Positions 19,538 to 50,166 of a DNA stretch of 64,000 nt are shown piece after piece. The stretch is from positions 4,378 through 68,377 of IMG/VR virus record IMGVR_UViG_3300045988_079139, one strand, 5' to 3'. Below the pieces are notes generated by a model. It was not told the origin of the DNA, ran no database searches, and worked only from the letters and a program-made list of their open reading frames with translations. The stretch is from a virus. The position numbers were made by a program, and so were the translations under genes. Positions within the stretch are counted from its first letter, which is position 1; each line of letters opens with the position of its first letter.

Positions 19538-19543
19538 TTTAAA

Positions 19544-19575: not shown

Positions 19576-19602
19576 CTTTATTGAGGGAAAGGAGTTAAGT
19601 AA

Positions 19603-22257: not shown

Positions 22258-22279
22258 TAAAAAAGAATTTTTATTATAG

Positions 22280-25111: not shown

Positions 25112-25126
25112 TAAGGGGGCGAGCGA

Positions 25127-25471
25127 ATGAAATATATAAAATAGTTTAGATATTATGGAGAAGATCATCAAGATAATTTTCCTAAATATACAAATTATTA
25201 TGGTATGTTGAAAAGCGGAAATATTTTACAAGGTCTCGGCGTTGTTTCTCAGCTTGGTATTCAGGCTCGACCTGAAACAAAATTTTATTTAAATGGTAGT
25301 GATTCTCCCATTGTAATTGGTAAAACTGGTATTTTTGAACTTGATTTGGATGGTCGAGGAATGATTACTTCTATCCGATTTGACCCAAAATCATTAGACG
25401 ATTATAATGCACCTAATAATACAGATAGATTATTAGTTGATGTGGTTTATGAGGGGGTTGACGTCGGATGA
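25127..25471 (+). CDS. Hypothetical protein (114 aa) with TAG at codon 6
   Basis: The ATG at 25127 has a GGGGG RBS, whereas the ORF-track start at 25205 has none. The TGA stop overlaps the next start in an ATGA arrangement. Confidence 0.5.
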
Positions 25472-26511
25472 GTTTTTATGGTAGTATATATTATGAATTA
25501 GTTGATACTTTTTACAAAGTATTGGTTCATAATAAAGGAAAAACGAACATTGGATTTCCTGTTGCGGCCGATGTTAAAGACGAATAGACTTTGATGGCTA
25601 TTGGTCGAAAAGGCGTTTTAGATATTGATAGTGGTAATAGATGGATTAAGTTTACTGCTAGCCCAGATACTACAAAATATACTATATGGCATGAGAAACC
25701 AGATGAAGAAAATGTTTAGTCCATTGCTAGTTTTACAAGATTAGAATCTGCTCCAGAAGGAGTGACACCGACTAATTTATATGCTGGTGATGTTATTTAG
25801 GTCTCAAGCTTTGATTATGACAAAGCAGGCCACACTGCGAAATCAGAAATTAGATATTACAAACTACCGACATCTACGGTTGAAGCTGATATTGCTTCTT
25901 TAATGTCCGCAGTTGGCGATATTAAAGATATTTATCCAAGTAAAACTGAAGAAGATGTGGAAAACGACGAAGATGTAAAAAATATCGGTAAAGCTATTGG
26001 CGATATTGAATCTTATCGTCTGCAGATGGGAGAGGGACATGAGACTTATACCTTATGTAATGGTCTATATGATTTAAATCAAATCGCAAACACAATTGGT
26101 TCTGTATCAGAAGATATTTATGACGGCTTTGTTTGGGATAGAACATTTACAGACTCTTTTGGTAATTTAAGAACTGTATTTCCTACAGAGTATAGTAAGA
26201 AGAGTCTATGTGATGCAATTGGTAATGTTGAGTTATTGGTTGATGCGAATGGAGACCCTTTAAATATCGTTCAAGCAATAAATAAGACAGCAGGCGATAA
26301 TAGTGCCCTTACTGGTAATTTAACTGTTACTAACATCGCTGTGGAAAAGCATGAAACCGATATAGGTCTTTTAAATGATGCAGTTACTGCATAGCAAGAA
26401 AAAATCACTGAGCTTGAAACAAAAATAGCTGAATTAGAAGGTTATAAAGCTTTAATAGAGGATTATGGTACTCGTATTGAAGCTATAGAAGCACAATTAC
26501 AAACTGAATAA
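25468..26511 (+). CDS. Structural protein with a C-terminal coiled coil (347 aa, 4 TAG)
   Basis: ATGA overlap with the upstream gene and a gaggggg RBS. The 25903 fragment is co-frame, ending at TAA 26509-26511. Confidence 0.55.
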
Positions 26512-26567: not shown

Positions 26568-28043
26568 TTGCCAAATTATGTAAAGTTTAGACGTGGTACG
26601 CCAGAAGCGTATAAAAATCTATTGGATCTTGGTCGAATTGAGCAAGATACCCTATATTTCTTATATAAAGAAGATGGCTCCACAGAAGCGACCTTATATT
26701 TAGGAACTAAGTTAATTGGCGGTGGATCAGAAAGCTCCGGAGGCGCGTCTACACTGCGTGACTTAACAGATGTTTTAATCCAAGAGAACTTGGCAGATAA
26801 ATCAATTTTGATTTATGATACAAAAGCATCTGCTTGGGTTGATAAGACATTGGCAGAGGTTGTTCCCACTATGGTGGGAGCAACCATTGCTTCCTCTGGA
26901 GTTGGCGGATTGGTTCCAACCCCTCCCCAATTAGATGAAAATGGCGAATTAAAGTTCTTAGCAAATAATGGCGAATGGGTTCATATTGATACAACCAATA
27001 AGAATCAGCACATTATTTCCGTTGAGAACGGTGAAATGTTATTACATGAAAATGTAATTAATGAAGCTACTAAGGAATTAGAATTATCCGTAAATGATAT
27101 TCTAATTATTAAAGACCCTATCTCCGCAAATAAGTGGCAACACACCGCTTATGTCTATAATGGAGCAAATTGGGTTGCAATGGATGGTAATTATAATGCA
27201 GAGAATGTTTATTTCGATGAGGATTTAATTACTACTTTTGCAATTGGTAATATTTCACTTACTAATGGTCAAGGCAAAATTGCAGCCGCAGGTAAAAACT
27301 TAAAAGAAGTTTTTAATACAATTTTCTTAACAGAAAAAAATCCTAGCACTACTCAACCTTCAGTAAGTTTCTCTTCTGTCACTTCTGGAGGATATGAAGT
27401 TGGTACTACTGTAACTCCTTCTTATAATGCATCATTTAGCACAGGCTCTTATTCTTATGGTCCTGCTACTGGTGTAACTGTAGATTCTTGGGAAGTTACT
27501 TCCACAGATGGAGATACAAGTGATGCTAAATCTGGCACTTTTGCTTCTTTTATTGTGGAAGATGATACAAATTATACCATTACTGCAAAAGCAAATCATA
27601 GCGCTGGCGTTGTTCCTGTAACAAATGTCGGTAATGATTATGAAGATGGCGCAATTAAAACTGGTAGTAAGAGTAAAACTTCTTCTGCCATTTATGGCTA
27701 TCGCAACAGTTTCTATGGTACTGCAGAAAATAAAGATGCTTTAGATTCTGACAAGATTAGAGCTTTAACTGCAAGCGGTTATGCTTTAGCTAATGGTGCT
27801 CAGATTGAAGTTGCAATTCCTTTGGATGCTATGCGTGTAATTATTGCTTATCCAGCAACACTAAGAGATGTAACTTCCATCTTAGATGTTAATGGCATGA
27901 ATGCTGAAATTGTTTCTGGTTTTACCAAGCAAACAATTGAAGTTGAAGGCAAAGACGATTATGACGCAATTAGTTACAAAGTTTATACAATGGATTATGC
28001 AAATCCAAATGATAAAGAAAATACTTATAAAGTACAAATCTAA
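26568..28043 (+). CDS. Tail fibre / receptor-binding-type protein (491 aa, TAG-free)
   Basis: TTG start after AAGGAG. The N-terminus (FRRGT...LYF...LYLGTKLIGG) belongs to an N-terminal module shared with 29448, 31294 and 41052. Confidence 0.6.
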   Translation: MPNYVKFRRGTPEAYKNLLDLGRIEQDTLYFLYKEDGSTEATLYLGTKLIGGGSESSGGASTLRDLTDVLIQENLADKSILIYDTKASAWVDKTLAEVVPTMVGATIASSGVGGLVPTPPQLDENGELKFLANNGEWVHIDTTNKNQHIISVENGEMLLHENVINEATKELELSVNDILIIKDPISANKWQHTAYVYNGANWVAMDGNYNAENVYFDEDLITTFAIGNISLTNGQGKIAAAGKNLKEVFNTIFLTEKNPSTTQPSVSFSSVTSGGYEVGTTVTPSYNASFSTGSYSYGPATGVTVDSWEVTSTDGDTSDAKSGTFASFIVEDDTNYTITAKANHSAGVVPVTNVGNDYEDGAIKTGSKSKTSSAIYGYRNSFYGTAENKDALDSDKIRALTASGYALANGAQIEVAIPLDAMRVIIAYPATLRDVTSILDVNGMNAEIVSGFTKQTIEVEGKDDYDAISYKVYTMDYANPNDKENTYKVQI

Positions 28044-28060
28044 GAAGGAGGATAAAGATA

Positions 28061-29428
28061 ATGGCTTTAGATTTTGGTAAATTAAATTTCAGCGTTAGCT
28101 TTAATCCTACTTCTGCTTTCCCGATTGATGCAAGATGTTATTTTGAAAGCTATGCTGCTGCAGAAGCTGCGGCCGCAAAAGCAGAAGCCGCAGGAAGCAC
28201 CAATACAGTTTATTACTATGGTCAAAATGTGGTTGTTGTTGAAAATGGTGTAGCAAGTTTCTACATTATCCAACCAGATGGTACTCTTGGCGAAGTCGGT
28301 GGAAAAATTACCATTAATACAAGTTTATTTGAATATGACGAAGATGGTAATTTAAGTCTAAAGGGATTTGCTGATGCAGTTGCTGGCGCACAACTTGTAA
28401 AAGGCGCTGATAATACAGTCTCTTGGGTTAAACCAGATTCTACTACTGTAGAAGGTTTATCAACAGCTGTTGAAACTCTTCGTAAGGATGTAGACGCTTT
28501 AACTAAGAATGTATATACAAAAACAGAAGTTGAAAAATTAATTTCTGATGCAGCTCATTTAAAGCGTAAAATTGTTGATAGGGTTGAAGATATTTTAGCT
28601 TATATCACTGAAGCTGAAGATGAAGAGCATTATATTTTTATGGTACCTACTGGCTTCCAAGAAGAAGCTGATAAATATGATGAATATATTGTTGTTAATG
28701 GTGCCATTGAAAAAATTGGTTCTTGGGAAGTTAATCTTGATGACTATGCAACTAAAGATGATTTAAAAGATAAAGTCGATAAAGTTGAAGGATATGGATT
28801 AATTTCTAATGAGAATGCTAATAAACTTGATGGAATTGAAGAAGGCGCTGAAAAGAACTACATTAGTTCTGTAGAAGAAGCTCAGTTCCAAGTTATTGAA
28901 GGTAAACTAAAATTAATTGCTGTTCAACAGAATATTATTACCGGATTAGCAGATACATTAAAAGGCAAAGTTGATGTTATTGAAGGTAAGGGTTTATCTA
29001 CCAATGATTTTACAAATGAGTTAAAAGCTAAGTTAGAAGCAATTCCTGTTGCTGATTTAAATGCAGCTTTATCAAAAGTTAATGCTTTAGACAAGGATAT
29101 CTATGGATATCAAGATGAAGAGGGCAATGAGGTTCCTGGTTTAATTGCAGTTGTTCCTCAGTTACAAAATGAGTTAAATTTATTAACTCAAACTGTAAAT
29201 ACTAATAGCGGCAGTATTCAAACTTTGAATTCAACTGTCGGAACTTTAACACAAACTGTTAATACTTTAACCCAGACAGTTAATGGTTTTGCTGATACAT
29301 ATGTTTCTATTGCTAATTTCAATGCAGTTGTTGGTAATTTAGATTCTATGTTGGAAAACCAGGTTAATATCATGAATGAAATTGATGATATTAATAATAG
29401 ACTGACTTGGCATGGTATTGAAGACTAA
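28061..29428 (+). CDS. Fibre-like coiled-coil protein (455 aa, TAG-free)
   Basis: AGGAGG RBS. The protein is Ala-rich N-terminally and has C-terminal repeats (LTQTVNT...) with a coiled-coil appearance. Confidence 0.6.
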   Translation: MALDFGKLNFSVSFNPTSAFPIDARCYFESYAAAEAAAAKAEAAGSTNTVYYYGQNVVVVENGVASFYIIQPDGTLGEVGGKITINTSLFEYDEDGNLSLKGFADAVAGAQLVKGADNTVSWVKPDSTTVEGLSTAVETLRKDVDALTKNVYTKTEVEKLISDAAHLKRKIVDRVEDILAYITEAEDEEHYIFMVPTGFQEEADKYDEYIVVNGAIEKIGSWEVNLDDYATKDDLKDKVDKVEGYGLISNENANKLDGIEEGAEKNYISSVEEAQFQVIEGKLKLIAVQQNIITGLADTLKGKVDVIEGKGLSTNDFTNELKAKLEAIPVADLNAALSKVNALDKDIYGYQDEEGNEVPGLIAVVPQLQNELNLLTQTVNTNSGSIQTLNSTVGTLTQTVNTLTQTVNGFADTYVSIANFNAVVGNLDSMLENQVNIMNEIDDINNRLTWHGIED

Positions 29429-29447
29429 TAAAGGAGGAAAATAAATA

Positions 29448-31157
29448 ATGGCTGATGTTTTATTTAAACGCGGTTCACAAACCGATTTAGACGCATTGCG
29501 CGTTAATAGTGATAAAACAAAGAGAATTCCTGGAGCTTTTTATTTAACTGAAGACTCTCATAGATTATATGTTGGTATCAACAATGATAATAATGATATC
29601 GTTCCTGTGAATGAGGGTATTACTACTGTTGAGACTTTAAATCAGTTACCTAATCCTTCAACCGCAGATGATAAGAAATTAACTACGGGTCAATTCTATT
29701 ATGTTTATAAAGACAACTCTGGTAATGCGCTAAATGTTTTAGCTATTTATAATGGCCAAGAGTGGATTCAAATTAACTCTAATACTGATACTACTATCAG
29801 TTCTTTCACTCAGACCGTATCTGTTTCCAGTGGTACTGCAACTATTAAGGGTGATATTAAAGACTCTTCTGGTACTACTAAATCTAGTAATTTTAAAATT
29901 ACAGTTGCTGGTGGCTTAACATTAAGTGTTAATACTGCTAAAGATACTTTAACTATTGACGCTAGTGCTTTACAGCAGGATTTAGGACATACTGTAGACA
30001 CTTCTGGCGTTGATATTACTTTATTACATCCTAAAACAACTGGAAATAAATTCCGTATTGAAGCTGGTAATTTCACTACTATTGAAGCAAACTCTGACAA
30101 TACTGGTATTAAAATTAACAGTGCTGACCATAGAGTAAAATCTGTCGCCATCGGCAATGGCAATGCCGCAGGTAATAGCACTAATGGTTTTAATATTAAA
30201 GTTACTGATAATAGTAGTAATTCAAAGAGTGCTAATTTTGATCCAACCATTAAGCTGGCAAATGACACAGATGCTCGTCATTTCACTGGCGGTAACATTA
30301 CTTTGCCAGTATATACCACTACTGAAATTGATGATAAATTCAAATCAGAGCTAAAAGCAATTGATGGTATGACCTATAAAGGTACTATTGGTACTAATGG
30401 TACTGGTCACAATGGTAATGCATTACCAACAACTAATGTTCGCATTGGTGACACTTATAAAACTCTTTCTACTTTTACTGTTGCAATTGGTGGAGTAACT
30501 CCCTCTGAAGGCGATGTAATTATTGCTCGTTCTACAGATGGAACTGAAAATGCTAATGGTTATATTGATTCCGCTAAAATTACTTGGGATTTAATTCCTT
30601 CTGGTAACGAAGATACTACTTACTATGGAGTATCTGCAACACACGGTATTGGACTAAAAGACAGTAGCAATGCAACTGTTATGGCTTTCACATTAGAAAG
30701 CGGAAATGCTAGCATTACTTTAGAAGATACCACTGGTGATAAATCCAATAAAGTAAAAATTACTCACGCAGCTCCAACTGCCCAGACTAAAACTGCTGAA
30801 ACTATTACTGGTGTAAAAGGAAGCGGAGATCACGTTCAAAACACTTTGACTGGTACTGTTATTAAAGATGTACTGAAAGATTCAACTGGTCACGTTGCTG
30901 GTTTACAACAGGCCAATATTAGTTTTTCTGACACTAATGCAACTTTAGTTTCTGCTGGTGATACTACTGTAGCTGCAGCTTCTTTGGGTAGTAGTTCTAG
31001 TAAAGTTTCTTTAAAAACTACTTTGAAACAATCTAGTGGTACTACTAAAACTTCCACCTCTGTATTTACTGTATATTCTGATAATAAAAATTTACAAGTT
31101 TCTGCAGATGCTACTAATGATGCTGTAAAAGTATCCTTTGTGTGGGATTCTTTCTAA
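29448..31157 (+). CDS. Tail fibre-like protein (569 aa, TAG-free), Thr/Ser/Gly-rich beta-rich body
   Basis: AAAGGAGG RBS. Its N-terminus (LFKRGSQTDLDAL...GAFYLTED.HRLYVG) is shared with paralogues. Confidence 0.6.
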   Translation: MADVLFKRGSQTDLDALRVNSDKTKRIPGAFYLTEDSHRLYVGINNDNNDIVPVNEGITTVETLNQLPNPSTADDKKLTTGQFYYVYKDNSGNALNVLAIYNGQEWIQINSNTDTTISSFTQTVSVSSGTATIKGDIKDSSGTTKSSNFKITVAGGLTLSVNTAKDTLTIDASALQQDLGHTVDTSGVDITLLHPKTTGNKFRIEAGNFTTIEANSDNTGIKINSADHRVKSVAIGNGNAAGNSTNGFNIKVTDNSSNSKSANFDPTIKLANDTDARHFTGGNITLPVYTTTEIDDKFKSELKAIDGMTYKGTIGTNGTGHNGNALPTTNVRIGDTYKTLSTFTVAIGGVTPSEGDVIIARSTDGTENANGYIDSAKITWDLIPSGNEDTTYYGVSATHGIGLKDSSNATVMAFTLESGNASITLEDTTGDKSNKVKITHAAPTAQTKTAETITGVKGSGDHVQNTLTGTVIKDVLKDSTGHVAGLQQANISFSDTNATLVSAGDTTVAAASLGSSSSKVSLKTTLKQSSGTTKTSTSVFTVYSDNKNLQVSADATNDAVKVSFVWDSF

Positions 31158-31230
31158 TAATATAAATCTAGGACAAAGCTTGTTAAGAAAGCTTGTATGA
31201 TTTTTAATTCTCTATAGAGGATATTTGAAT

Positions 31231-31269
31231 GGGTGACAGGATTATATCCTGTCACCCGTTTTTTTATTT
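31231..31269 (+). terminator. Rho-independent terminator
   Basis: gggtgacaggattatatcctgtcaccc hairpin followed by gttttttt. Confidence 0.8.
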
Positions 31270-31293
31270 AAAAGGAAAGAAAGGAGAATATAA

Positions 31294-34200
31294 ATGAATA
31301 GTTCATTTAGACCCGTGCGTGGTATTGAGGCAAAAATTGTTGACCAGCCTTTGCATGACGGCTATATCTATTTTGCGACTGACAGCGGAAAAATTTATTT
31401 AGACACTGCAACAGATAGATATTCACTTGGTGCTAATGGCGCCGCAGTTTTATATGCAAATGCTGAAAATGTAATTTTTAACACAGATAACTCTTATACT
31501 ATTCTATATAGTTATCTAGATGACCAAAATGCCATTCCAAAAGCTGAAGATTTAGTAATCAATAGTGATGGTCGATTCTTTAGAGTTAATTATTACGATT
31601 CTGCTTCTGGCTTAATTAACTGTAAGCTAATCGCAGTTAGTGGTAGCGGAGGCGGCGGAGGTAATACCCCAGGCAGTCCAGATGCTCCAAGTGATGATCC
31701 AAAAGTAATTAAAGTTACTTATCACGATTTAACTTACTCCTTCTTGAACGGTCGTACATATACAATTGATTTCACTGCATTATCTCAGGTTGACTTATAT
31801 TTAAATATTAGTTATACTGTTAAAAATGCACAAAATCATACTACTGGTTTTGGTAGTATGCAAGTAAAGTCTGGCCAACGTGTAAGCTTGCCAGTAGGTC
31901 AGTATATTACACCAGAAGGCGGCTATCATGCAGTTGATATTATTATTCAGGGTGCTAATGCTTATGAATATACCCGTACTATCAATAGAATTAAATGTGT
32001 TGATTTATAGGTTGCCAATGATCCAGAAAAATTTACTTGTCAAAAAATTTATGATGGAACAATTCCTTATTATGTAAAAGTTGTCGGTCAAATTAATAAG
32101 ACTTTACATATTGAGATTGATGGAAAACCTTTTACTACTAAAACTTTAAGTTCTAGTGAAAGTGATACTTCTATTTACGTGCCGATTGACTGTAAGACAT
32201 TGGGCTTAAATACTGGCGTACATACTATTACTGCATATATGATGGCTGACGGTGTTCCTAGTAACACTATCATGACAGACTTCATTTATCATCCAGAAAA
32301 TGCTGCTGATGCAGTTTATGTTATTGTAACAGAATATCCAGAAGAGTGTATGAGTTATGAGACTCCCGCTGTTTACTACTGGGTATATAATACCGCACAA
32401 ACAGAAGGATATAAAAACTCTCTGTCCTTCACTGTTGATGGTGTAGTTGTAGCAAAAGATATCGTTGAAGCTCAGAACACAGGTACAAGCCTAAGATGGA
32501 ATGTTACTGGTTTGAAACCAGATGCTAAAAATATTTGTGAAATTAACTGCGGTAGCGGCAGCCGTACATTTGAAATTTACTGTCATTATAGTAGTATTTT
32601 TGAACCAACTACTGATGGTGCAGTTTTAATGTTAAGTGCTGAAGGTCGTACAAATAGCACTTCTTTAGAGCGTCGCTTAGAATGGAAATACACTAATGAC
32701 CGTGGTACTTCCTATACCGCTGAATTAAAAGATTTCAACTGGAATAACAACGGTTGGACAATTGATGATGCTACCGGAAGAGATTGTTTAAGAATTAGCA
32801 ATGGAGCTTCTGTAGAGATTCCTATGATGCTATTCCCAAATGCAGCTCCAAATACTGGTGGTTACACTTTTGAATTTGAATTTAAGCCTTATAACTTATA
32901 TTCTTATAATCTTTTAACTCAATCAACTATCACTGTGGAAAATGACAATAACACAGAAGATGATGAAGTTGATATTCTTCGTGAATTTAACTCTGACTTA
33001 GCTGCAATTTCTTATATTGCTACTGGCAATGATGGTAAGGCATACGGTATGTGCTGTGGTACTCAGGATGCTTTCTTCCGCATGAGCGATGGTAAAAATG
33101 TTACTGTCCGCTATACCAATGATACTGTAGTAAATGTTGCTATCACTGTTAATGCAGCGAAAGAACAAATTTGTATGTATGTTAATGGCGTTATGAGTGG
33201 CATGGTCGCTTATAAGAGAAGTTCCGCAAAACTTCCCATTCAGGCTAATAAGTTAATTATTAATTCTGATCAGTGTGACTTGGATATTTATAATATTCGT
33301 ATTTATGACCAGGCATTAACTTCAAAACAAATTGTTCAAAACTATATTGCAAGCACTAAGGACATGGATATTTATAATCAAAATGTTTTTAATGCTGCAG
33401 ATGAAACTGTAAGTTTAGCCGCATTGCAAGATTATAATGATGATAATCCAAGTAATGCGACAATTCCTTATATGATTTTTAAGACTAAATCTCCTGATAT
33501 TTTGCCTTTCAATAAAGCAAATGAAGATGTTATTTGCTCTATTGAATTTGTAAACCCTGCTTTGGACTATGCTTTGGCAAAAGGTGAGATTAACGAGTCT
33601 TATTATAAAAAACACGCACCTAGTTTTACTGCTGATGAAGTTACAATTAATGTTCAGGGTACTTCTTCTCAGAAATATCCAAGAAAGAACTTTAAAGGTA
33701 AGTTTAAGAAAGCAAAAAATTGGCAATGTCGTGAAAAATCTGTAAATGATTTAGTTGGTGATAAGTCACTATCTAAATTCTATATGGATGAAAGTATGGC
33801 AGAAAAAAGCATTTGTTGGAAAGCTGACTATATGGATAGCTCCAGTTGTCACAATACTGGTTTTGCTAGCTATGTGCAAGAGCTATATTGGAATCACCCA
33901 TTAGATTACTATGAAGGAACTAATGTGCCAGCCGCAAACAAGGATGGACAATTGGGTGAATATCGTAAGAAATATCGTACTAGCCTATATGGATTCCCTG
34001 TTTTAGTGTTCCATCAAAAGTCTGATGGTTCTACTGAATTCATTGGCCGCTATAATTTCAACTTAGATAAGGGCGCAGACGATACTCTTGGTATGGCTTT
34101 AGAAAAAAATCATCCAGTATTAACCGACAAAACCTATGATAAGGTTTGTGAATGTTGGGAAATGGCAAATAACATGGGTGGTCGTTGCTCTTTCAGAGGT

Positions 34201-37200
34201 AATCCTTTTGATTATTGCTATGACTATAATCATGTTAATGCTGATGGTACTATCGGTGCTTATATCGTTGATGGTAAAGAGAGTCAGAGCGATATTGGTG
34301 ACGATATTGAAGTACGTTATCATATTAATGGTGATGCCATTGAGGGCGCTTGGGATAATTTAACTAAACCCTTGGATGATGGTGGCACTCCAATTTCTTC
34401 TAGAGAAGCTTTCGAAGTATTGCTTGGAGGCGATGCTGACGGAAACAATAGAACTGGTGCTTATGCGCATTTAGAAAGATTGTTTAAGTGGTTACAGTCT
34501 TGTTATTATGCTTTTGATATGAATACTGATGAAGATAAAGATTGGGTAAGAGAATTATTAGGTCGAGATCCTATTGCCGACGAAGATGGTAAATATTACG
34601 ACGCTAATGGAATTCCTATTGACCCAGACTTTAGAGAATTGAGAAATGCTCGTAAAGTTAAGTTTGAAACTGAATTTGACAAGCATTTAAATAAAGAATA
34701 TTGCACTGTTTATTATATTTTAACTGAATTGTTATTACAATATGACTCTCGTGGAAAAAATATGATGTTATCCTCTTGGGGTCCTATGGAGGCCGGAGGA
34801 GAATATATTTGGTTCCCAATTTTCTATGATATTGACACTCAGCTTGGTGTTAATAACTCTGGTATTCCTTCTTGGGAGTATAACGTAGAACCAACAACTG
34901 GTTTTAATAATCCTGGCGGCAATAGAGCTTTCTCTACTGCAAACAGTTTGTTATGGAATAATTTCCATCAGTCTTATGCGGTTGAAAGTAAATATGTTCA
35001 AGATTATTACCGTTTATTGAGAGGTAGTACTTTAACAATTGCTAAAATTAATGGATATTATAATTTTGATTATGATATTAGTAAGGCTTATTGTATGAAG
35101 GGTATCCTTCCAATTAGTATTATGAATGCAAATCAAAATTATAAGTATATTGCTCCAAGCACTAAAGGTTATATTATTGGCGTCGATGACGCTGGTGCTC
35201 CTAAATATAGAACAACTAGTGCATATTTCTATTGTTTGCAAGGAACAAGAGAATTACATAGAGCCCAGTTATTACGTAATCGCTTCAACTATTACGATAG
35301 TAAATGGATGGCTCAGGACTACCAGCCTGGTACTGGCGGTAGTGCAATGCGTTGGCGTGCCAATGCTTATAATGACCCAGAAGATGCTAGCTTGCGCAGT
35401 CATTTAACATTACAGGTAAGACCTGCATTAGACCAATATCTAGTATTGTGGCCTGATGAAAGTGCAACTTATGTTGTGCCTATTTTTGCTAAGGGTGGCG
35501 AAACGGCTACTATTGATTTGATGAATTTGTTCTCTTCTGGAACTTATCAGCAACAGTTGATTTATATCGGTGGTTATAAATATTTGCAAGAATTTGGCGA
35601 TGTAAGTTTGTTATATCTTGATGAATTTGAATTCCCTGATGATGCTAATAATATTACTAAGATTCAACTTGGTAATGAGAATCCTCGATATAAGCCCAAT
35701 GAGCAGTTTAAAGTTGATGCGATTGATGAAGCAACTCAAAAGAAACCTTTGTTAAAAGTTTTTGATATTACTAATATTGATAAAATCAATAGTAAGATTG
35801 AGCTGTTAGATTCTGTTAAGCTAGAGACTTTTAAGGCTCTTGGTAGTAAAATTACTGGTGCAGTATTTGCTGATGGTGTTAACTTGCATCATTTATATTT
35901 ACCTAATACTGTTAACTCTTTATCATTGAGTAAAGCTACAAATCTAGAAAGAGTTCTATATAGTCCTAGTGAATTAAAAGAAACTTTGGATGATGGTACT
36001 GTTGTTGATACTGAAGGTTTATATATTGAAGATCTTGTAAAAACTGTTAATGGTTCTAAGACCACTAATATTAGTGAAATCAATATTGTCAGTGGCGGGT
36101 TGAAGTTATATAGCTATGATATGCTAAATAAGGTTACTGAAGCTGTCGACAGTATGATTGCTTCTGGTTCTGATGCTGCATTATCTATTAATATGGAAGA
36201 TGTTCATTGGACTCCTTACACTCAGTTGGGCGAGGGTGCTATTTACCAGCAGAGCAAGGTTGATAATTATAAATATGCAACTAATAACTACTCTTTCAGA
36301 GATTATGAATATAGTAATGAAAACCAGTGGCAATTAGATTTGTTAAATGGTCGTATTTATGAATATGTTGAAAGCCCTGTTGCTCCTCCTGTAAATCTTG
36401 ATTTACTTGATGTATATCTGGATCAGGAGAAAGACAGCGAGACTCAAATGCCTAAGCGCTTTACTAATATTACAGATACATTGGCTAAAGCTTTACCAGT
36501 TATTACTGGTGAATTATATATTGATAATGCAAATCATGCTGCGATTTCTGAAGCTGATATTGCTAATGTTTATAATGTTGCTTTCCCAAGTTTATCTATT
36601 AAGGCAGCAAAAGTGGCTGATGCTTATCGAGCTCGTTTTGTTCGTAAAGATGGTAATGTTGAATCTGAAATTAAAGTTTTGCGTTTTAATACGACTGATC
36701 AAAACATTATTATTACACCTCCTTCAGACAATGAAATTTCTACTCCAAACCATTATGACTTTAAGGGTTGGACTACTACCGATCCTGCAACTGTAAATGA
36801 TTTAGATAAATTGCCAATTATTACTGATTTTTCTACTTTTGCATTCTCCGAAAGTGTTCCAGAATTAACTTTCTATGCAGTATATAAGAAGCATGAATAT
36901 CAAATCACCTTCCTAGACCCTGGCGCTTCTGGAAATGATGCTTATGAAGAAGTTATTCCTACTGCTTACGGTTCAATTCTAACTGAACCATCTCGAATTC
37001 CTTATAGAGGTGCTGCTGAAGCAGAGATGGACTTAGATCAAAGACTAACTTTTAAAGGTTGGACTGATGTAAGAGATAATGCTGGTGTCGTTGGTACAGA
37101 AATTTTAAATGGTGTTTTGGTTGATATTTCAACATATAAAGCAGATAGAAATTATACCTTCTATGCTGTATTCACTCAAGAAAGTGTCTACACAAATACT

Positions 37201-37983
37201 ACTGATAACAAGTATTTTACCTTCGGTTATAATTATAATTATGTTGATCCAGTAGATCCTTCTAAGAATGCTGTCGGAAGTACAATTAGAATTTCTTCAG
37301 AATATCAAAATGGTGATTTAAGAGGTAAGATTACTGTGCCAGCTGTTGATGATTAGGGTAACCCAATTGTTTCTATTATGGGCTTTGATACTGATGCAGC
37401 AAAAGCAATTACTCATTTATTCTTTATGCCAGATAATAATATTTTGCAATTTGAATCTCAAGCCTTCGAAGGAAATAACTTTGATAGTAAATTGCAATAT
37501 ATTGACTTCCCAAATCTTACTAAGTTACGCTCAATTAACAGATATGCCTTCCGTTATCTGGATAATTTACAATTATCTGAAATTCCTGCTCCTGTTGTCT
37601 ATGTTGGACAAGAAGCATTTAATGGAAGCTTTGAGTCTTTGTCTGGAATTAAAGAATTCTATATTAATGGTAGTGTAACAAAAATGGACCCTGGAGCTTT
37701 CTCTAACTGTGATGTTCCAATTGAAACTCTATATGTAGGAAAGCCTGGAGACCCAACACAGCTGGATATTAGTTCTTGGAATTCTTCTCAAGCTCCTTAT
37801 TTCCAGCAAAATCAATATTTCCGTCCTAAGACTGTATATATTTATTGTGATGGAGATCGCATTGATGCGTTCCATGCGGCAATGTCTAAGTATGCAGAGG
37901 GTCAATCTATTTTCCAAGTTGCTTGGGAGGGCGAAGAAGAATTAGGACAATATTTTGTTAAAGATGCTAATGATTTTTCTTGA
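31294..37983 (+). CDS. Giant fibre/receptor-binding protein (2,229 aa if both TAGs are read through) with a LamG-like lectin domain and a C-terminal BspA-type leucine-rich-repeat domain
   Basis: RBS ggaaagaaaggag. The 31294, 32179 and 37378 fragments are co-frame, and only the TAGs at 32008 and 37354 separate them. The supposed starts at 32179 (GTG) and 37378 have no RBS. A LamG-type motif, DIYNIRIYDQALTSKQI, lies near 33290. The 37378-37983 segment has a BspA-like LRR pattern. An alternative reading splits it into three genes if these TAGs terminate. Confidence 0.5.
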
Positions 37984-38001
37984 GAAAGGAGTACATAAAT
38001 A

Positions 38002-38199
38002 ATGAAAAAAGAGGTCTTATATACATATTTAGGCACTAATGGTATTATTTGTTCTCCTGTCCATTTAGAGGATACATATTATACTCGCAAAGTGCGTTTA
38101 TATGCCGATAAAGATAAGCGACTAACCAAAGACGGCAAGACCTTCCATAAAGTCGTTGTTGTTCAAGATGAAGAGGTTAGTGAATGGTATGAAGTATAA
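38002..38199 (+). CDS. Small hypothetical protein (65 aa)
   Basis: RBS gagaaaggag, TAA stop. Confidence 0.45.
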   Translation: MKKEVLYTYLGTNGIICSPVHLEDTYYTRKVRLYADKDKRLTKDGKTFHKVVVVQDEEVSEWYEV

Positions 38200-38307
38200 G
38201 GCCAAATATAATTATTTGACTTACTTCATACGTTATATATAACAAAGGGCCAAGGGAATTTTCCCTTGGCCTCATAATAAAAATATAATAGAAAGGAAGA
38301 GTTTAAA

Positions 38308-40272
38308 GTGATTACTTCTCAAAATGTTCAAAATAGTGCCAAGTACTCTGCGTTATTTACTGATGCTTACAATCTGTTGAAGAAAGAAAATGATTTAACT
38401 CAGGGTGAATTAGATCTTGGCGGCTTTACTCGCTTAGAGGAATATTTTACTCGTATGCAAACTTTAAGCGCTAAGCATGTTGGCGAAGTTCAGAATATTG
38501 TAGATATCTTTGATGAGAAAAACAATGTTTATTATGCTAAATATGCGAAGTTCTTAATGCTTCCTCTTGATGAAACTCCTTTTGAAATTAATGCTAACTC
38601 TCGTCAGATTACTGTTCCTGATAATTTCAGAAAGTATGGCGTTAGCTTACATGGTGACCAGATTGCTGAAACTTTATTATTTAGAGTTGATAGATTCTTT
38701 GATTTCCAGGATTTGTTGAATACCACAATTCTAGTTCAGTGGACTAGACCCGGCAAAGAAGCAGAATCTGAGCGCGAAGGCGTTTCTTTAATTACTTTGG
38801 TTGACTATGAAACTGAGCCTGGTAAGATTTGGTTTGGTTGGCCATTAACCTCAGATATTACTAAAGAAGCTGGCGAATTAAAGTTCTCTGTTCGTTTCTT
38901 GCGCAAGAACTCCTCTTCTGGCAATATCTCTTATAGTTTAAATACTTTAACTACTCAAGTTACCATTAAGCCTGCTCTACATCCTAATTTAAATAATAAT
39001 TTAACTATGGATGAAGCTTCTATTTTATTTAGTGAAGCTATTGTAAACAGTCCTTCTACTGGTAGTACTCCTGCCGCTCGTCCTGTATATCTACAGAATT
39101 TGGCACAGAAGGCATGGTTGGTAGACGATGCATTGAAATTAGCTGTTACTGTTAAAACTGGCGATACTGGTGTATTAACTTATACTTGGTATAAGGCTGA
39201 TATTACTGGTGTTGACGCTGATGGTAAGTTTATTATTGCTGATGGTGTTTAGTTAGAAGGTAAGACTGAATTGCGTCGTACCACTGACGTTGTTCGTGCA
39301 GAAGATAAAGCTTATTATTTAGATAGCGAAGATGGCGCTGGTGTTCCTTATTTAGGAGAAATTAAAGCTGGCGTTGATGAAAACAATCAGCCTGTGGGTG
39401 TAAGCACTGACGGAGCCGCTGTCTATGAAAGATATTCTGTGTATGAAATGCCTGCCACTGGAGAAGTTTCTGGTCAGTATTGGGTTATTGCCCAGAATAG
39501 AGCTGGTACTTCCACTGAGCAGACTAAGAGTGTTTACTGTGAAATCCCTGGTCCTAAGACTTTGGTATTTACCGCAGATAAAGCTTTGGCTACTAATGTA
39601 TTTATCGCTGATGATGGTTCTGTAACATTACAGGCAGAGGCCACTCCTGATGATCCTGACCCAGCTCATACCACTCTAACTTATAAGTGGGAAAAGAAGA
39701 CTGCTATTGATGGTGAATATCAGGAAGTTAAAGTTGATGGCACTCCAGTATCCACCGGTAAGACTTTAGTTTTGGCTAAGGCTGGTGAAAATGAAGTGGC
39801 AGCTACTAAGCATATTGGATGGTATCGCGTTACTGCAAAATCTGTAGTAAATCGTGATGAAATGACTTGTGTAAGTGCTCACGATTGTAAGGTTACTGCT
39901 CATCCTACTTTGCCAACTGTCACTTTCCCAACTCAGGAAATTACTTTGGTTAAAGAACATGATGCTGATGATAATGGTGTATTCACTTTGAATATTGAAT
40001 TGGCCGACAAGGGTGGTTTATTACATAGTGAATATTATACTTACACCTGGTATCGTAGTATCACTGATAGCGATCCAGTTGAAGTTAGTGCTGATGATGC
40101 AGATATTATTACTGCTGCTGACATTCTAGCAGAGCATCGTAATAATACTTTACAGGTAAAATTGGCTCCAAACGATGAAGTTGAATTCTACTTCTGTGAA
40201 GTCCGCAATCATTTGAATGGAGAGGTTTCTGGTCCTGCTGTTACCAAGCTATTCAGAGTAAGTGCACAGTAA
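38308..40272 (+). CDS. Structural protein (654 aa, 1 junction TAG at 39250), paralogue of 40298
   Basis: GTG start after gaaaggaag. The 39271 fragment is co-frame, ending at TAA 40270-40272. Residues 60-200 align with the 40298 protein (F.VDRF.D..DL....I.VQ...). Confidence 0.5.
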
Positions 40273-40297
40273 TATTTAAGAAGGAGGGCTGTAATTT

Positions 40298-40981
40298 ATG
40301 ATTACAACTGCTGAAGAGTATTACCGCGCTTTATTTAGAGTTCAAGATGATAATCCTCCAACGCTAGCCCTATTACCTCACGCAGAAACTACTTATAAAG
40401 TTGATTTAAATAAGAGAACTATTGAAACTCCTGAGTTTCTAAGTGTTGCTCGTGACCATAAAGCAGAAAATATCTACTTTGAAGTAGATAGATTCTGCGA
40501 TTATATGGACTTATCAACTTGTTGCTGCATTGTACAATATGAGGCTGGAGAAGGAGAAACTCGTAGAAGCGGTATTTATCCAGTACCTTTTTATGATATT
40601 ACAACACCAAATAATCGTAGAGAAATTGAGAATCAAGGACAGGATATTCCAGAAGGTGGAGAAACCACCGAAACAGATAATCCAGTTTTATATATTAAAG
40701 ATAAAATGTTAGTGCCTTGGTGCTTAGATGGTGCGGCAACCGCTTATCCCGGTCCTATCACCTATTCCCTACAGTTTTATCGTTTGAATATTGATGGTAC
40801 TAAATTCGTTTATAATATGAATACCACTCCAGTAACAAGTGAAATCCTTTATGGCATGGACGTTGTAAAAGAAAATTACAACGGTGCATTTGATATTGAG
40901 CCAGATGAATATCAAAAGATTTTGGCTCGTGTCGTTGCTTTAGAGGGAACATTTGATATTAAGTGGATGGATATGTTCTAA
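40298..40981 (+). CDS. Structural protein (227 aa), paralogue of the N-terminal region of 38308
   Basis: AAGGAGGG RBS, TAG-free, followed by a terminator. Confidence 0.6.
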   Translation: MITTAEEYYRALFRVQDDNPPTLALLPHAETTYKVDLNKRTIETPEFLSVARDHKAENIYFEVDRFCDYMDLSTCCCIVQYEAGEGETRRSGIYPVPFYDITTPNNRREIENQGQDIPEGGETTETDNPVLYIKDKMLVPWCLDGAATAYPGPITYSLQFYRLNIDGTKFVYNMNTTPVTSEILYGMDVVKENYNGAFDIEPDEYQKILARVVALEGTFDIKWMDMF

Positions 40982-40990
40982 TTTTTATAT

Positions 40991-41028
40991 GGGTGGAATG
41001 ATTTAATCGTTCCACCCATTTTTTTATT
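40991..41028 (+). terminator. Rho-independent terminator
   Basis: gggtggaatgatttaatcgttccaccc hairpin followed by atttttttatt. Confidence 0.8.
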
Positions 41029-41051
41029 ATATATAGATTGGAGGGATAAAA

Positions 41052-41711
41052 TTGGCAGATTTAAAATTTTTAATGGGTATTGAGAAGACTAACACTGGCG
41101 ATTCTCGTTTACCTGCCGCAAATGTGGCTATCGTAAAAGGACAAGTATATTTTGCAGAAGATAAATCTAAAAATGGTTTTGCAAGAATTTACTATGATAC
41201 AGAAGATGGAAGACGCGTTACTGTCAATAGCTTATCATCAACCTATGACTCTAGTAATCATGAAATTGCTAGTTATTATGTTACTTTTCCAACCTTACAA
41301 CTGGATTACAGTAGTGGTAAATATGCTTTAATATTTAGTGATGGAAAAGGTTCAAAATCAACTTATAATTTATCAGATATTTATCCCAGTCAGTGGACTT
41401 GGAGCGGAGGTACGACCGCAGGTCCTACTGCTTCTATTAAGTTATTAAGAAATGGTTTAGATTATGGCAATGTCAGTGTTGCTGCGATTCCTACAGCTTC
41501 AACTTCAGCTTCTGGTATTATTACAACCGGAAGTCAGACTCTTGCTGGTGAAAAAACTTTTAATAATAAAATGACTGTTGGTACTGGTTCATCTTCTGGA
41601 ACCATTTTACAAGTCAGTGGTAATGCTAATATTACTTATAAATTAAGTTTCAATGATAAAGCTCATCTACAATATGACAATGCAGATGAATGTCTATATT
41701 TTACATTTTAA
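41052..41711 (+). CDS. Fibre N-terminal-module protein (219 aa)
   Basis: TTG start 6 nt after GGAGGG. It shares the N-terminal motif (KF..G.......L.....V.G.VYFAED....RIYYDTEDG) with 26568, 29448 and 31294. Confidence 0.55.
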   Translation: MADLKFLMGIEKTNTGDSRLPAANVAIVKGQVYFAEDKSKNGFARIYYDTEDGRRVTVNSLSSTYDSSNHEIASYYVTFPTLQLDYSSGKYALIFSDGKGSKSTYNLSDIYPSQWTWSGGTTAGPTASIKLLRNGLDYGNVSVAAIPTASTSASGIITTGSQTLAGEKTFNNKMTVGTGSSSGTILQVSGNANITYKLSFNDKAHLQYDNADECLYFTF

Positions 41712-41724: not shown

Positions 41725-44532
41725 ATGAGTTTACAAGTTTGGTTACCTCTTAATGGACATATAAAAAATTATGGCTTATCAGACGTAACAACCTCATTAA
41801 TTAATAATCCAACTATTGTTGCGTCTAATCGTGGAGAGTGCTATAATTTTAATCCTAGTAATGAAAATAAATAGGCAATTGAAGTAAGCATTCCCGATAT
41901 GCCTAGATGGATTCAAAATGAATTTTCAATCGCATTTTGGTTTTATCATCGAGAAGGTTCTGATAGAAGTGTTATTTTTGGCAATCATCAATATAATGGA
42001 AGCTATACTTTTAATATTGAAAAGCTTGCTAATAACCAATTAAGAGTATATATGTAGGCCAAACCAGATGCTTCTTTTTCTACTTGTACAATAGCCGCAG
42101 ACACATGGACTCATATTACCATTGTTAAAACATCGGATGAATTACGTATTTACAAAGATGGAGTTAAAGTAAGTACTCGCACACATTTATCTTCTGATTT
42201 ATGGCAAGCCGCTGATGGAGTAAAGTATTTATTAGGTAGAGACGGCCGCACAAACAATACTGCATTAAATGGTATGATAAGTGATTTCCGTATTTATGAC
42301 CATATATTATCTCAAAAGGAAATTAAAAATATATCGCAAGGTTTATTATTAAATTATTCTTTTGATGATTTATATATGACTGCTACAACTAATTTAGTGA
42401 ATAAAGCAGATGGAAGTTTTACAAAAAATGCTAGTTCTGTTTGGCATGCAGGATTAAGTTGTCCAAAAGCTTATGTCACTCCTGGAAAAACTTATACTTT
42501 CTCTTGTGAAATGCGTCATACTGGAACCTAGACTTATACAGCTTATTTTGATACGAATTGTACTGATGAGGATGGCGTATATAGTGGAAATGATGCAGCT
42601 ATGCAAAATATTAAATCCAACTCTGGTGCAACAATTCCAAAAGACGGAACATGGGTAAAAATTTGGGTTACAGTAACTATTAAACCGGACGCAGGAAAAC
42701 CATATATTCATCATACAATATGTCCACAGGTTACAGCAGAAGAAGTAACTTTTTATTATCGAAATGTACAATTGGAAGAAGGTCCTATGGCAACACCTTA
42801 TGTTGCTTATAATTCACCAAGAGAAAATTGCATTGTAGATAATTCTGGTATGGGAAGACATGGCAAATTAAATACAAGCAGTTGTTATGTTTCCACTGAT
42901 ACTCCTCTTGGAGAATACTCTTTACATTTAAATGGCTCTGATACTGGGGATAGAGCTTGTGTTATAGGCGATTTAAATTTGGATGATATTAAGACTTACA
43001 CCTTTGCAAGCTATATAAAAATTAATACTTGGGGAAAACAAACAAGTGGTTTGTTTAATGCAAATTATACTTCAAGTTCATCTCCTGGAGATTATACGGC
43101 AAGCCCTATTCATCATCGCGACTCTCATTTTGATATTGCTACGAAAGGTAATACGGTGGCTACAACAGGAGCAACATATCAAAGATTATCTTGTTCAACA
43201 TCAGATATTCCAGTAGGTTAGTGGAAGCATGTCGCAGTTACTTTTGATGGTAAGACAGCTACTTTATATATTGATGGAGTTAAGAAAAGAAGCGTATCAT
43301 TTAGCGCAGCAGTGACTTTAGCACCTTGCAAATATATCTTTTTATCATATTCCTCTGCCGGTGGTGCATAGAGAGTAACAAATGCTAATTGGTCTGATTT
43401 TAGAGTATATTCAACTTGCTTATCTGCTGATGATATTAAAAAATTAGCTTTAAATCATGTGGCAGTAGATAAAGATAATAACTTACATTGTTATGGTCTT
43501 GTAGAAGAAACTAATATTGAACACAATATATCAAAACAGAGTGTGGTTAATGTTGGGGTTAAAGAAGAAGTAAACATCTATCCAGGTTCACAATATAATG
43601 CGGCGTCTATGAATGTTACTTATAATTTTGCAACGGATATATTCAAGGATTATGGATTTAATTCTTGTACCAAATTTGCTGCTTCAAATACATCTACTTC
43701 TGCATTTATGGCTTATTCATATTTGTTACCAATTTCTTACTACACTCCAAATTCTACTTATAGCTTTGCATGTTATGCATATGTTTCACCTGATTGTAAT
43801 GCAAATTTGCGTATCAATTTGGAGCAAAGCACAGGTTGGGTTAAAAATTATTAGAATACAAAAAGCAATATTAATGATACAACAAAAGGACAAGTAATTA
43901 AAGTTACTGGAACTATTAAGGCCAATAGTAACGGAAAAATTTATATAATGTTCTATCCTAACCCGAATCAAGCAAATACTTTTACAACTGGATATTTCTT
44001 GATTGCTGGTTTAACCATAGTCCCTGGAGAAAATATTCCACATCCAAGAGTAGAAAGAATGAGTGGAAATTTAATTTCATCTATGTCTCCTGGCACAAAT
44101 ATGACAGCCAATGGAACTCATAGTTTAATTGGAGATTTTAGTAAAAATTCAGATACTTATGGTTGGTTCAATACTGTTGAACCATTAGAGTTCGATAGAA
44201 TGTATCGCCTAACTTTTAATGTATCTAATTTAACAGATGGTAGTATTTGGGGTTGGAGATTGTGGAATAATGCTAATTACGAATTAAAAGTAGATAGAAA
44301 TGGAAATTATTCTTATACTTTTATTGTAAAACGAAATAAACTTCCTGCGAATGTTAGTTTCCAAAGATTTTTGTGGGATGACGGTGGCCGCACAAATCCC
44401 ACAGGCACAGTTTATTTTAATAATTTTAAACTGGTAGAATGTATTGCTCAACCGTATCATGGAATTTTTGAAACTAATAAAGCAGCTATCCATCCTTCAT
44501 ATATTGAAATGAATAATATATATGAAGATTAA
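41725..44532 (+). CDS. LamG (concanavalin-A-like lectin) two-domain receptor-binding-type protein (935 aa, 7 TAG)
   Basis: RBS agaggtga. The 42274, 42601, 43459 and 43948 fragments are co-frame with only TAG between them. LamG signature motifs are ISDFRIYDHILSQKEI and SDFRVYSTCLSADDI. The N-terminus MSLQVWLPLNGH is paralogous to 47675. Confidence 0.6.
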
Positions 44533-44621
44533 GGGCAGTTTTAATTAAAAGTCCTAATTTAATTTTTAATTCTTATAGAAGGTAAAACTTTCTATAATTT
44601 AATCAAAGGAGAGATTCTATT

Positions 44622-44849
44622 ATGTTAAAGATTGAAAACAAGAATTTGAGTTTCAACGCAGTGAGCATGATCAACGATGAAGTCGTTGCTAGATTCACTT
44701 CCAACTATTATGGAGCTGGCGTCGATTTTAATTATAGTGTTGAGAATGCTGTGGCCCATTTGGCACATTAGGTCGAAGCAGACGCTGATTTTGATGCATT
44801 TAAGGGTCATGTAATGGACACTATTGGTGCAATGGCTACCATTGTCTAA
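44622..44849 (+). CDS. Small hypothetical protein (75 aa, 1 TAG)
   Basis: AAGGAGAG RBS, TAA at 44847, then a terminator. Confidence 0.4.
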
Positions 44850-44863
44850 TAAGAACCATATTA

Positions 44864-44900
44864 GGGGCGAGAGCTGATAAAGCTCTCGCCCTTATTTTTG
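44864..44900 (+). terminator. Rho-independent terminator
   Basis: ggggcgagagct-gataa-agctctcgccc hairpin followed by ttatttttg. Confidence 0.8.
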
Positions 44901-44981
44901 TTTCTCGGACAAATAAAATTAATTATATGAGTTTAATTTTTATACATATATAGAGAAATTTTTGAAAAGAGAGGTGTAAAA

Positions 44982-47663: not shown

Positions 47664-47674
47664 GGAGGACGCTT

Positions 47675-50146: not shown

Positions 50147-50166
50147 GAGAAAGGAGCTGAAATTAA

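Follow-up and report, generated by a model that had tools for sequence, protein, structure and literature searches.

The DNA analyzed here very probably comes from a phage that uses genetic code 15, in which TAG in late genes encodes glutamine, and the TAGs at positions 32008, 37354, and 39250 (TAG1, TAG2, and TAG3) would then be ordinary Gln codons inside two continuous genes. The window, by which we mean the whole 64,000-nucleotide stretch, covers the late (tail) region of a large uncultivated phage together with part of its replication module. Under this code, only TAA and TGA would terminate translation, with TAG decoded as glutamine in the late genes. The recoding, the assignment of TAG to Gln, the fused architecture of the two genes, and the lack of conservation of the three sites are established by the comparisons below, while the phage itself matches the known genetic code 15 of gut phages, so that a known phenomenon is extended and none is newly established.

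When we counted codons in the 25 plus-strand genes of the window, we found 112 in-frame TAGs. The genes themselves end in TAA (20 genes) or TGA (5 genes) and never in TAG, and no in-frame TAA or TGA was found within these 25 frames. Treating TAG as a sense codon raised the number of plus-strand residues in open reading frames (ORFs) of at least 100 amino acids from 15,273 to 19,946 and reduced the number of ORFs from 61 to 38, as fragmented ORFs merged into genes of 3269, 2092, 2229, and 1340 aa, among others (Table 1). The clearest evidence for TAG as a sense codon throughout the late genes is the tape measure gene. Since this gene has 41 TAGs, near-complete decoding is required: at 90% decoding per TAG, 1.3% of the chains would be full length, and a useful yield needs per-codon decoding of about 98% or better. 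This leaves little room for designed partial suppression; minor truncated products may arise from imperfect decoding. On the minus strand, no TAG was found in the five replication and nucleotide-metabolism genes scanned, and a short ORF in this module (58837-59364) stays open only if one TAG is read as sense.

Table 1. Features of the window, with TAG read as a sense codon except in the last row
Feature	Coordinates	Strand	Details
Tape measure protein gene	3027..12836	+	3269 aa, 41 in-frame TAGs; PHROG tape measure families, E down to 1e-53
Upstream recoded tail genes	12957..26511	+	aa (TAGs): 2061 (13), 122 (1), 884 (5), 964 (8), 114 (1), 347 (4)
TAG-poor island	26568..41711	+	Seven baseplate/fibre-region genes and a 65-aa ORF; 3 TAGs
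Tail fibre/host-adhesion gene	31294..37983	+	2229 aa, two in-frame TAGs, ends in TGA
TAG1	32008..32010	+	Fibre residue 239, read as Gln; CAA in L001
TAG2	37354..37356	+	Fibre residue 2021, read as Gln; CAA in L001
65-aa ORF	38002..38199	+	Directly 3' of the fibre gene, own Shine-Dalgarno sequence; conserved
Hoc-like Ig-repeat protein gene	38308..40272	+	654 aa, one in-frame TAG
TAG3	39250..39252	+	Residue 315 (654-aa form) or 266 (605-aa form), read as Gln; CAG in L001
Downstream recoded late genes	41725..54834	+	aa (TAGs): 935 (6), 893 (5), 823 (8), 1340 (6), 161 (2)
Replication/nucleotide-metabolism module	57291..63998	-	RuvC, dUTPase, NrdG, NrdD, DNA-polymerase-like fragment; standard-code compatible
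Pieces if TAG were a true stop	31294-32010, 32179-37356, 37378-37983, 38308-39252, 39271-40272	+	

The assignment to glutamine comes from comparison with related contigs of 160 to 205 kb, a family that mixes TAG-recoded, TGA-recoded, and standard-code members. Across this family, the residue most enriched opposite TAG is Gln, at 9 to 12 times background. The closest relative, L001, is ENA TONG22-1 scaffold_7 of 203.7 kb (ERZ28633363, TONG22-1_SAMN15871222_METAG-scaffold_7, 203,724 bp). In a codon alignment with L001, TAG is common to both sequences at 15 sites in flanking genes, and at the 11 discordant sites TAG is paired with CAA or CAG in 10 cases and with GAG in 1. In the gene at 41725-44532, all six TAG positions of the window are also TAG in L001, which has one more. 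Among the GenBank phages in INPHARED, megablast gave no match, and tblastn reached only distant CotH-like proteins (22 to 25% identity) encoded by Bacteroides phages and by Bacillus phage G, so that this collection offers no annotated relative; an exact-sequence look-up of the window's NrdD returned no record.

The region 31294-37983 is one fibre gene. Its ATG is preceded by a strong Shine-Dalgarno sequence, and the predicted protein has tandem Ig-like domains at its N terminus, a LamG/CotH-like center, and a C-terminal BspA-type leucine-rich repeat (LRR) domain. The LRR domain, which the sequence-only reading had recognized beyond TAG2, was identified by Pfam as LRR_5 (PF13306, BspA type) at residues 2048-2139 of the joined 2229-aa protein, with an E value of 2.7e-9 and a score of 37.5 bits, above the gathering cut-off of 27.7 bits. 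The protein also matches CotH weakly in Pfam, as well as PHROGs 14959 and 24896. We found more than 90 full-length fibre homologues of 2100 to 2750 aa, each of which unites the N-terminal, central, and LRR parts, and PF13306 is present in most of them; 91 full-length fibres were compared by segment-wise BLAST. The in-frame TAGs of fibre orthologues in other TAG-recoded family members number 0 to 47 and lie elsewhere in the gene, and fibre-gene TAG density ranges from 0 to 18 per 1000 codons across the family. In L081, a standard-code member, TAG serves as a true stop and the fibre gene contains no in-frame TAG. The 65-aa ORF that follows the fibre gene has orthologues in L001, L078, L079, L080, and L081.

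In the AlphaFold2 (AF2) model, TAG1 directly follows the final strand of one of the tandem Ig-like domains (pLDDT 92), within the conserved motif INRIKCVDL-x-VENDPENF, and the homologues have K (22), R (7), A (7), N (4), or other residues at this site. Over the 56 codons that follow TAG1, there are 19 synonymous and 8 non-synonymous differences from L001, showing that this segment evolves as coding sequence. Counting into the N-terminal cap and first repeat of the LRR domain ('KYFTF...LRGKITVPAVDD[Q]GNPIVSIMGF'), TAG2 comes after about 45 residues, in a variable loop of the first LRR unit between the conserved GKITIP and G-PI--IG-F motifs; the residue found there in homologues is D, Q, N, E, or K.

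The region 38308-40272 is likewise a single gene, encoding a 654-aa Ig-like repeat protein. Its GTG start has an SD-like AAAGGAAG upstream, and some callers use an alternative ATG at 38455, giving a 605-aa product. The protein has an N-terminal domain joined by a linker to about four Ig-like domains in a Hoc-like tandem array; its AF2 model has a pLDDT of 85.6, and its Foldseek matches are tandem Ig-domain proteins, including Hoc of phage RB49 (3shs). More than 60 full-length homologues of 600 to 670 aa were found, several of them covering 100% of the 654-aa form. The true linker is at residues 171-205. TAG3, which is residue 266 of the 605-aa form, falls in strand E265-267, midway through a confidently modelled Ig-like domain (local pLDDT 92). 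Homologues have E (9), Q (7), P (4), or other residues at the TAG3 site. Of the three TAGs, TAG3 alone meets a TAG in a relative, in the single case of the distant L079.

The sequence-only reading had taken TAG to be mostly a stop and the three TAGs to be programmed leaky stops at domain junctions, yielding short and extended isoforms such as a fibre with or without the LRR domain. We consider this very improbable, even though several of the observations behind it were reproduced. Each of the three TAGs is in frame with the downstream ORF segment, the gaps of 56, 7, and 6 codons contain no TAA or TGA, and no Shine-Dalgarno sequence precedes the supposed downstream starts at 32179, 37378, and 39271, unlike the genuine starts of the window, which have AAGGAGG or AAAGGAG 6 to 10 nt upstream. 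Both sides of each TAG do belong to one polypeptide, and the downstream starts are false. Continuous frames, unprimed downstream starts, and a block otherwise free of TAG are all compatible with leaky stops, and imperfect suppression could in principle give some truncated chains. The correspondence between the TAGs and gene boundaries in the ORF track, in contrast, is circular, as a standard-code track breaks at every in-frame TAG, and the chance of 0.002 calculated for co-framing presumes that TAG is a stop, whereas TAG is in frame 112 times and terminates none of the 25 genes. The placement of the TAGs exactly at domain junctions was borne out for TAG1, at a predicted boundary between Ig-like domains, but not for TAG2 and TAG3, which are inside domains. 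The comparison of fused and split homologues, which the same reading had considered informative, yielded full-length fusions for both the fibre (>90) and the second protein (>60); none of the homologues terminates where a TAG stands in the window, and all strong ones span the junctions. The three sites are CAA, CAA, and CAG in L001, whose fibre orthologue is 88% identical at the amino acid level and has no TAG, and they are K, D, E, or other residues in more distant homologues. Because the three TAGs are not conserved, no conserved short isoform can exist, and the decoding of about 98% or better per codon that the tape measure gene needs also argues against leaky stops. Site-specific partial suppression thus gives way to TAG as a general sense codon, and the three TAGs are not special read-through switches but ordinary codons. 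In programmed read-through, as in the Q-beta A1 protein and retroviral gag-pol, a conserved stop normally ends translation, and it is chiefly the short product that functions. The window resembles these systems in that a "stop" triplet precedes an open segment in the same frame, which would add a domain. It differs in that TAG ends no gene, the three sites lack conservation, and the short form has no counterpart among the homologues.

Two further explanations were weighed. If the three TAGs were nonsense mutations or assembly errors, in decaying pseudogenes or as sequencing artifacts, one could account for there being just three in the block and none shared with L001; however, the frames are interrupted by TAG only and never by TAA or TGA, 15 TAG positions in flanking genes are conserved with L001, discordant sites are nearly always Gln codons, and protein-level conservation persists downstream of the TAGs, which makes this explanation very improbable. 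The pieces listed in the last row of Table 1 do appear in standard-code ORF lists, as expected if the TAGs were true stops between independent genes with re-initiation or unrecognized starts. Yet the internal starts lack a Shine-Dalgarno sequence, the "intergenic" 56 codons are under in-frame purifying selection, the homologues are all fused, and the same code would break the tape measure protein into about 40 pieces, so we regard this as the least credible of the explanations and hardly worth entertaining.

The reading of TAG as glutamine agrees with published work on code 15 gut phages, which have TAG-free replication genes and recoded tail genes and include crAss-like, Lak, and Jade/Sapphire/Agate-type large phages (Borges et al., bioRxiv 10.1101/2021.08.26.457843), and with proteomics that validated TAG read as Gln, tail fibre included (Peters et al., PMC9523058). 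As in those phages, the TAGs of the window are concentrated in structural late genes while the scanned replication genes are standard-code compatible, TAG aligns with Gln, GC content is low, genomes are about 160 to 200 kb, tail fibres are split into several fragments under code 11, and one family includes TAG-recoded, TGA-recoded, and standard-code members. Unlike many published code 15 phages, the parts sampled here yielded no suppressor tRNA, release factor, or aminoacyl-tRNA synthetase genes, and unlike them this lineage has a TAG-poor island of about 15 kb amid its recoded tail module. The Mgcod abstract on multi-code phages (bioRxiv 10.1101/2022.06.29.495998) describes blocks that are genome sections with one code or another. 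The window resembles such phages in combining stretches that need TAG as sense with stretches readable in the standard code, and differs from the blocks as described there in that its almost code-neutral island is within the late tail region and comprises several transcription units.

ARAGORN and Rfam found no tRNA, suppressor tRNAs included, in the 64-kb window, which is about a third of a genome of about 200 kb. ARAGORN also found no suppressor tRNA in more than 200 related loci from four genome regions, roughly 90 kb, comprising the fibre, NrdD, the region that precedes the first gene of the window, and a single additional step past NrdD. The tRNAs that did turn up all belonged to ordinary arrays (Gln-UUG, Ile, Gly, Phe, Glu, and Met) in the distant contigs L103 and L104. 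By analogy with known systems, the decoding agent may be a phage suppressor tRNA with anticodon CUA, possibly together with release-factor manipulation, acting late in infection. Once such decoding was active, the fibre and the 654-aa protein would be made essentially only in full-length form. The predicted tryptic peptides that cross the TAG sites, with Q at that position, are CVDLQVANDPEK, ITVPAVDDQGNPIVSIMGFDTDAAK, and FIIADGVQLEGK.

The main value of these results is correct annotation, as the standard code splits the tail region into dozens of false ORFs and mis-splits two large host-interaction proteins, the 2229-aa fibre and the 654-aa Hoc-like Ig-repeat protein. They also serve as a warning that, where stops appear to fall at domain junctions, genome-wide recoding should be checked first. 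The family is a convenient natural series in which to follow the invasion of gene modules by a stop codon and its retreat from them.

A side observation of some interest is the TAG-poor baseplate/fibre island. The block is poor in TAG, as the sequence-only reading had reported. We counted 3 in-frame TAGs in its 4,788 codons (0.63 per 1000), whereas the plus-strand genes on either side have 109 in 13,322 codons (8.2 per 1000; Poisson probability of 3 or fewer when 39 are expected, ~1e-13). Glutamine content is the same in the island and the flanks, and CAG makes up 42% of Gln codons in the island versus 14% in the flanks. The island of L001 is equally depleted, with 2 TAGs at other positions, that of L078 is partly depleted, and the same depletion recurs in the unrelated lineages L029/38/74 and L040/47. 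TAG-to-CAG reversion as the source of the CAG excess was rejected: at sites that are TAG in relatives, the window carries CAA in 20 cases and CAG in 9 (31%), which is no enrichment. We also rejected the island as one transcription unit with its own timing, as strong terminator-like hairpins at 31227-31261, 38248-38271, and 40989-41019 lie inside it and indicate that it comprises several transcription units. Nor is divergence from the IMG/VR relatives specific to the island, since the whole tail module is 25 to 60% identical. The replication genes are 90 to 99% identical to the same contigs, a difference that implies rampant module exchange.

The three TAGs very probably arose recently, through substitution of CAG or CAA codons in an otherwise nearly TAG-free part of the tail module. 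One account of the depletion that does not appeal to chance, possible but on the whole doubtful, is that the island is a host-range (baseplate/fibre) cassette kept, or recently re-imported, in code-neutral form. A TAG-free cassette would be exchangeable among standard, TAG-recoded, and TGA-recoded family members, and TAG would creep back by CAG-to-TAG substitution, with 32008, 37354, and 39250 as the first such cases. Hints in favor of this account are the depletion shared with L001, in part with L078, and with the two unrelated lineages, the rampant module exchange, and one site where TAG in L078, L079, and L080 versus CAA in the window and L001 implies TAG loss. A donor for the island was not identified, and its several transcription units count against this account. 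So does the scarcity of TAG, in most family members, in the genes immediately upstream of the fibre, a pattern that points to expression-linked selection rather than a cassette.

We found that the whole window is TAG-recoded, a point that the sequence-only reading had missed. When TAG is read as a sense codon, broken plus-strand ORFs merge into long genes, TAA and TGA are missing from every coding frame, TAG is frequent in these frames, and the 25 plus-strand genes terminate in TAA (20 genes) or TGA (5 genes) and never in TAG. One merged gene, identified by PHROG matches (E as low as 1e-53), encodes the tape measure protein, which is one polypeptide by nature. As a rule of thumb, tail length is about 0.15 nm per tape measure residue, which predicts a tail of ~0.5 μm for this 3269-residue protein. 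The minus-strand genes for RuvC, dUTPase, NrdG, NrdD, and a DNA-polymerase-like fragment, which belong to replication or nucleotide metabolism, are TAG-free, and a short minus-strand ORF (58837-59364) is open only if one TAG is sense.

Genes fused when TAG is read as sense, and terminator-like hairpins of the tail region
Feature	Position	Strand	Remarks
Fused gene, tape measure protein	3027-12836	+	3269 aa, 41 TAGs
Fused gene	12864-19142	+	2092 aa
Fused gene, fibre	31294-37983	+	2229 aa
Fused gene	50167-54189	+	1340 aa
Terminator-like hairpin	31227-31261		16-bp stem
Terminator-like hairpin	38248-38271		10-bp stem
Terminator-like hairpin	40989-41019		14-bp stem

The earlier reading had proposed that three TAGs, at 32008 and 37354 in the fibre gene and at 39250 in a second protein, are possible leaky stops that could yield short and extended isoforms; its joining of the pieces held, but its mechanism did not. 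All three share a frame with the flanking ORF pieces, the gaps of 56, 7, and 6 codons ahead of the proposed restarts contain no TAA or TGA, and GTG 32179, ATG 37378, and TTG 39271 lack a Shine-Dalgarno sequence, while AAGGAGG or AAAGGAG lies 6 to 10 nt upstream of most genuine starts in the window. Because the window is TAG-recoded, every in-frame TAG necessarily creates an ORF boundary under the standard code, and the 0.002 chance figure attached to this coincidence is inapplicable. The three-TAG pattern follows, unremarkably, from an alternative genetic code that is already known.

Homologues show the same joined architecture. The joined fibre has more than 90 homologues of 2100 to 2750 aa, covering 94 to 100% of its length and mostly carrying LRR_5 at the C terminus, and for the joined second protein the count exceeds 60, at 600 to 670 aa; none of the homologues of either protein stops at one of the three junctions. 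In these homologues, the column of the first TAG holds K, R, A, N, or others within a conserved motif, that of the second, which falls in a loop flanked by GKITIP and G-PI--IG-F, holds D, Q, N, E, or K, and that of the third holds E, Q, P, or others. Fibre orthologues in other TAG-recoded family members have 0 to 47 in-frame TAGs at different positions, and a standard-code relative in which TAG is a true stop (L081) has none.

The placement of the TAGs at domain junctions was borne out only for 32008. An AlphaFold model of fibre (P0001) residues 126 to 440 (pLDDT 92) has three tandem Ig-like sandwiches, and this TAG is the first residue past the last strand of the first sandwich. The TAG at 37354 falls well within the part of the LRR domain that comprises its N-terminal cap and first repeat, and a product from ATG 37378 would be without the cap. 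In the second-protein model (pLDDT 85.6), a disordered linker (residues 171-205) connects an N-terminal domain to Hoc-like tandem Ig domains, and the TAG at 39250 (residue 266 of the 605-aa form) is in a mid-domain strand of the first Ig domain. Given a build of ~100-residue domains, one boundary site in three is unremarkable. This Ig-repeat protein has two candidate starts: GTG 38308 is preceded by an SD-like AAAGGAAG, and homologues covering 100% of the 654-aa form speak for it; ATG 38455 (605 aa) is the start picked by gene callers in close relatives.

The codon opposite TAG was read from the closest relative found (L001, a 203.7-kb ENA contig), which has 85 to 99% protein identity over window positions 19.6 to 47.6 kb. 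In a codon-level alignment, the two share 15 TAG sites and differ at 11, where TAG is opposite CAA or CAG in 10 cases and GAG in one; the codons opposite the three TAGs are CAA, CAA, and CAG, and the relative's own two block TAGs are CAG and CAA in the window. In ~70 related loci, no residue opposite TAG is as enriched as Gln (9 to 12 times background), and a separate site list agrees. The 56 codons past 32008 show 19 synonymous and 8 nonsynonymous differences from this relative and are therefore translated. At the 39250 site (alignment column 342), where the codon is CAG in L001 and GAA in L078 and L080, a 50%-identical orthologue (L079) also has TAG, probably through convergence at a Gln/Glu site.

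The efficiency of TAG decoding that the late genes require leaves little room for partial suppression. With 41 TAGs, the computed yield of full-length tape measure protein is 1.3% at 90% decoding per codon and 44% at 98%, so that decoding must be near-complete during late-gene translation; truncated fibre forms would thus amount to a few per cent at most. In addition, the 88%-identical fibre of L001 has no TAG, so a short isoform cannot be a conserved feature.

The window fits what is known of gut phages with recoded stop codons. Recoding affects 26 to 71% of genes in the large phages of Jade, Sapphire, and Agate type, with alternatively coded structural modules, standard-code replication genes, and different codes among close relatives (Borges et al., 10.1101/2021.08.26.457843); the window resembles them in its recoded structural genes, TAG-free replication genes, and relatives of mixed code, a likeness of pattern. 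TAG was assigned to Gln by proteomics, with examples that include a tail fibre cut into six ORFs by code 11 (Peters et al., PMC9523058), and Mgcod treats genomes made of different-code blocks formally (10.1101/2022.06.29.495998). By analogy, TAG would be decoded by a suppressor tRNA; searches of the 64-kb window and of some 90 kb from genomes of relatives turned up none.

The phage family with this fibre gene and gene order (contigs of 50 to 400 kb) includes TGA-recoded (L007, L008, L014, L019, L030, L032, L042, L048, and L065), standard-code (L018, L020, L026, L027, L037, L066, L072, and L081), and TAG-recoded members (most others from L002 to L080), and its fibre orthologues carry between 0 and about 18 in-frame TAGs per 1000 codons. 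For the replication module (57291-63998), most genes compared (RuvC, dUTPase, NrdG, NrdD, and DNA-polymerase-like) are 86 to 99% identical to the closest IMG/VR contigs (L082, L084, and L096), whereas the tail genes next to them in those contigs reach only 25 to 70% identity, indicating extreme intermodule mosaicism. One 402-kb record, IMGVR_UViG_3300032167_000002 (L003, L029, L083, L088, L118, and L124), contains the fibre, NrdD, and first-gene regions twice, in differing versions; its assembly appears to be a chimera or concatenation of two related phages, which makes it unfit as a genome-size reference. The fibre center (residues ~185-1552, LamG/CotH-like) has homologues at 24 to 28% identity in bacterial chromosomes (genomes and MAGs L265 to L330), including Segatella copri, Bacteroides, Chryseobacterium, Lachnospiraceae, and others. 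Copies of the whole fibre are confined to contigs binned to MAGs of Erysipelotrichaceae, "Tenericutes," and Clostridia (L262, L263, and L293), a weak hint of the host.

What novelty remains lies in the block 26568-41711, which is strongly TAG-poor: 3 TAGs are in frame over its 4,788 codons, compared to 109 over 13,322 codons in other plus-strand genes (Poisson P of about 1e-13; Fisher's test against other Gln codons, 1e-9), with the same Gln content as its flanks. There is also a fourth TAG (41034), and it precedes the true start of the block's last gene. This island may reflect selection against TAG or an imported cassette. Depletion is common to L001, partial in L078, absent in L079 and L080 (22 and 14 fibre TAGs), and recurs in two unrelated, lightly recoded lineages. 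None of the five island TAG positions is common to the window and L001, whereas all six window TAGs of the flanking gene 41725-44532 are TAG in L001, which has one extra. At one island site, three outgroups share TAG and the window and L001 have CAA, which implies that TAG was lost. The CAG share of Gln codons is 42% for the island, compared to 14% for the flanks and about 16% for the standard-code relative, and window sites where relatives have TAG show no CAG enrichment. Mosaicism relative to the replication module involves the entire tail module, not the island alone, and the island contains internal terminator-like hairpins.

Two TAG-free late genes, 73-1011 and 55120-55827, have GC3 of 0.39 to 0.41, compared to about 0.2 elsewhere, and use CAG for 8 of 9 and 10 of 11 Gln codons; with this atypical codon usage, they probably encode virion proteins made in very large amounts, from which TAG is kept out. 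The 38455-40272 gene has a milder skew of this kind (CAG, 16 of 19). Strong hairpins bracket the fibre gene together with a conserved 65-aa ORF (38002-38199), and likewise the next two genes; thus, the tail region comprises several transcription units.
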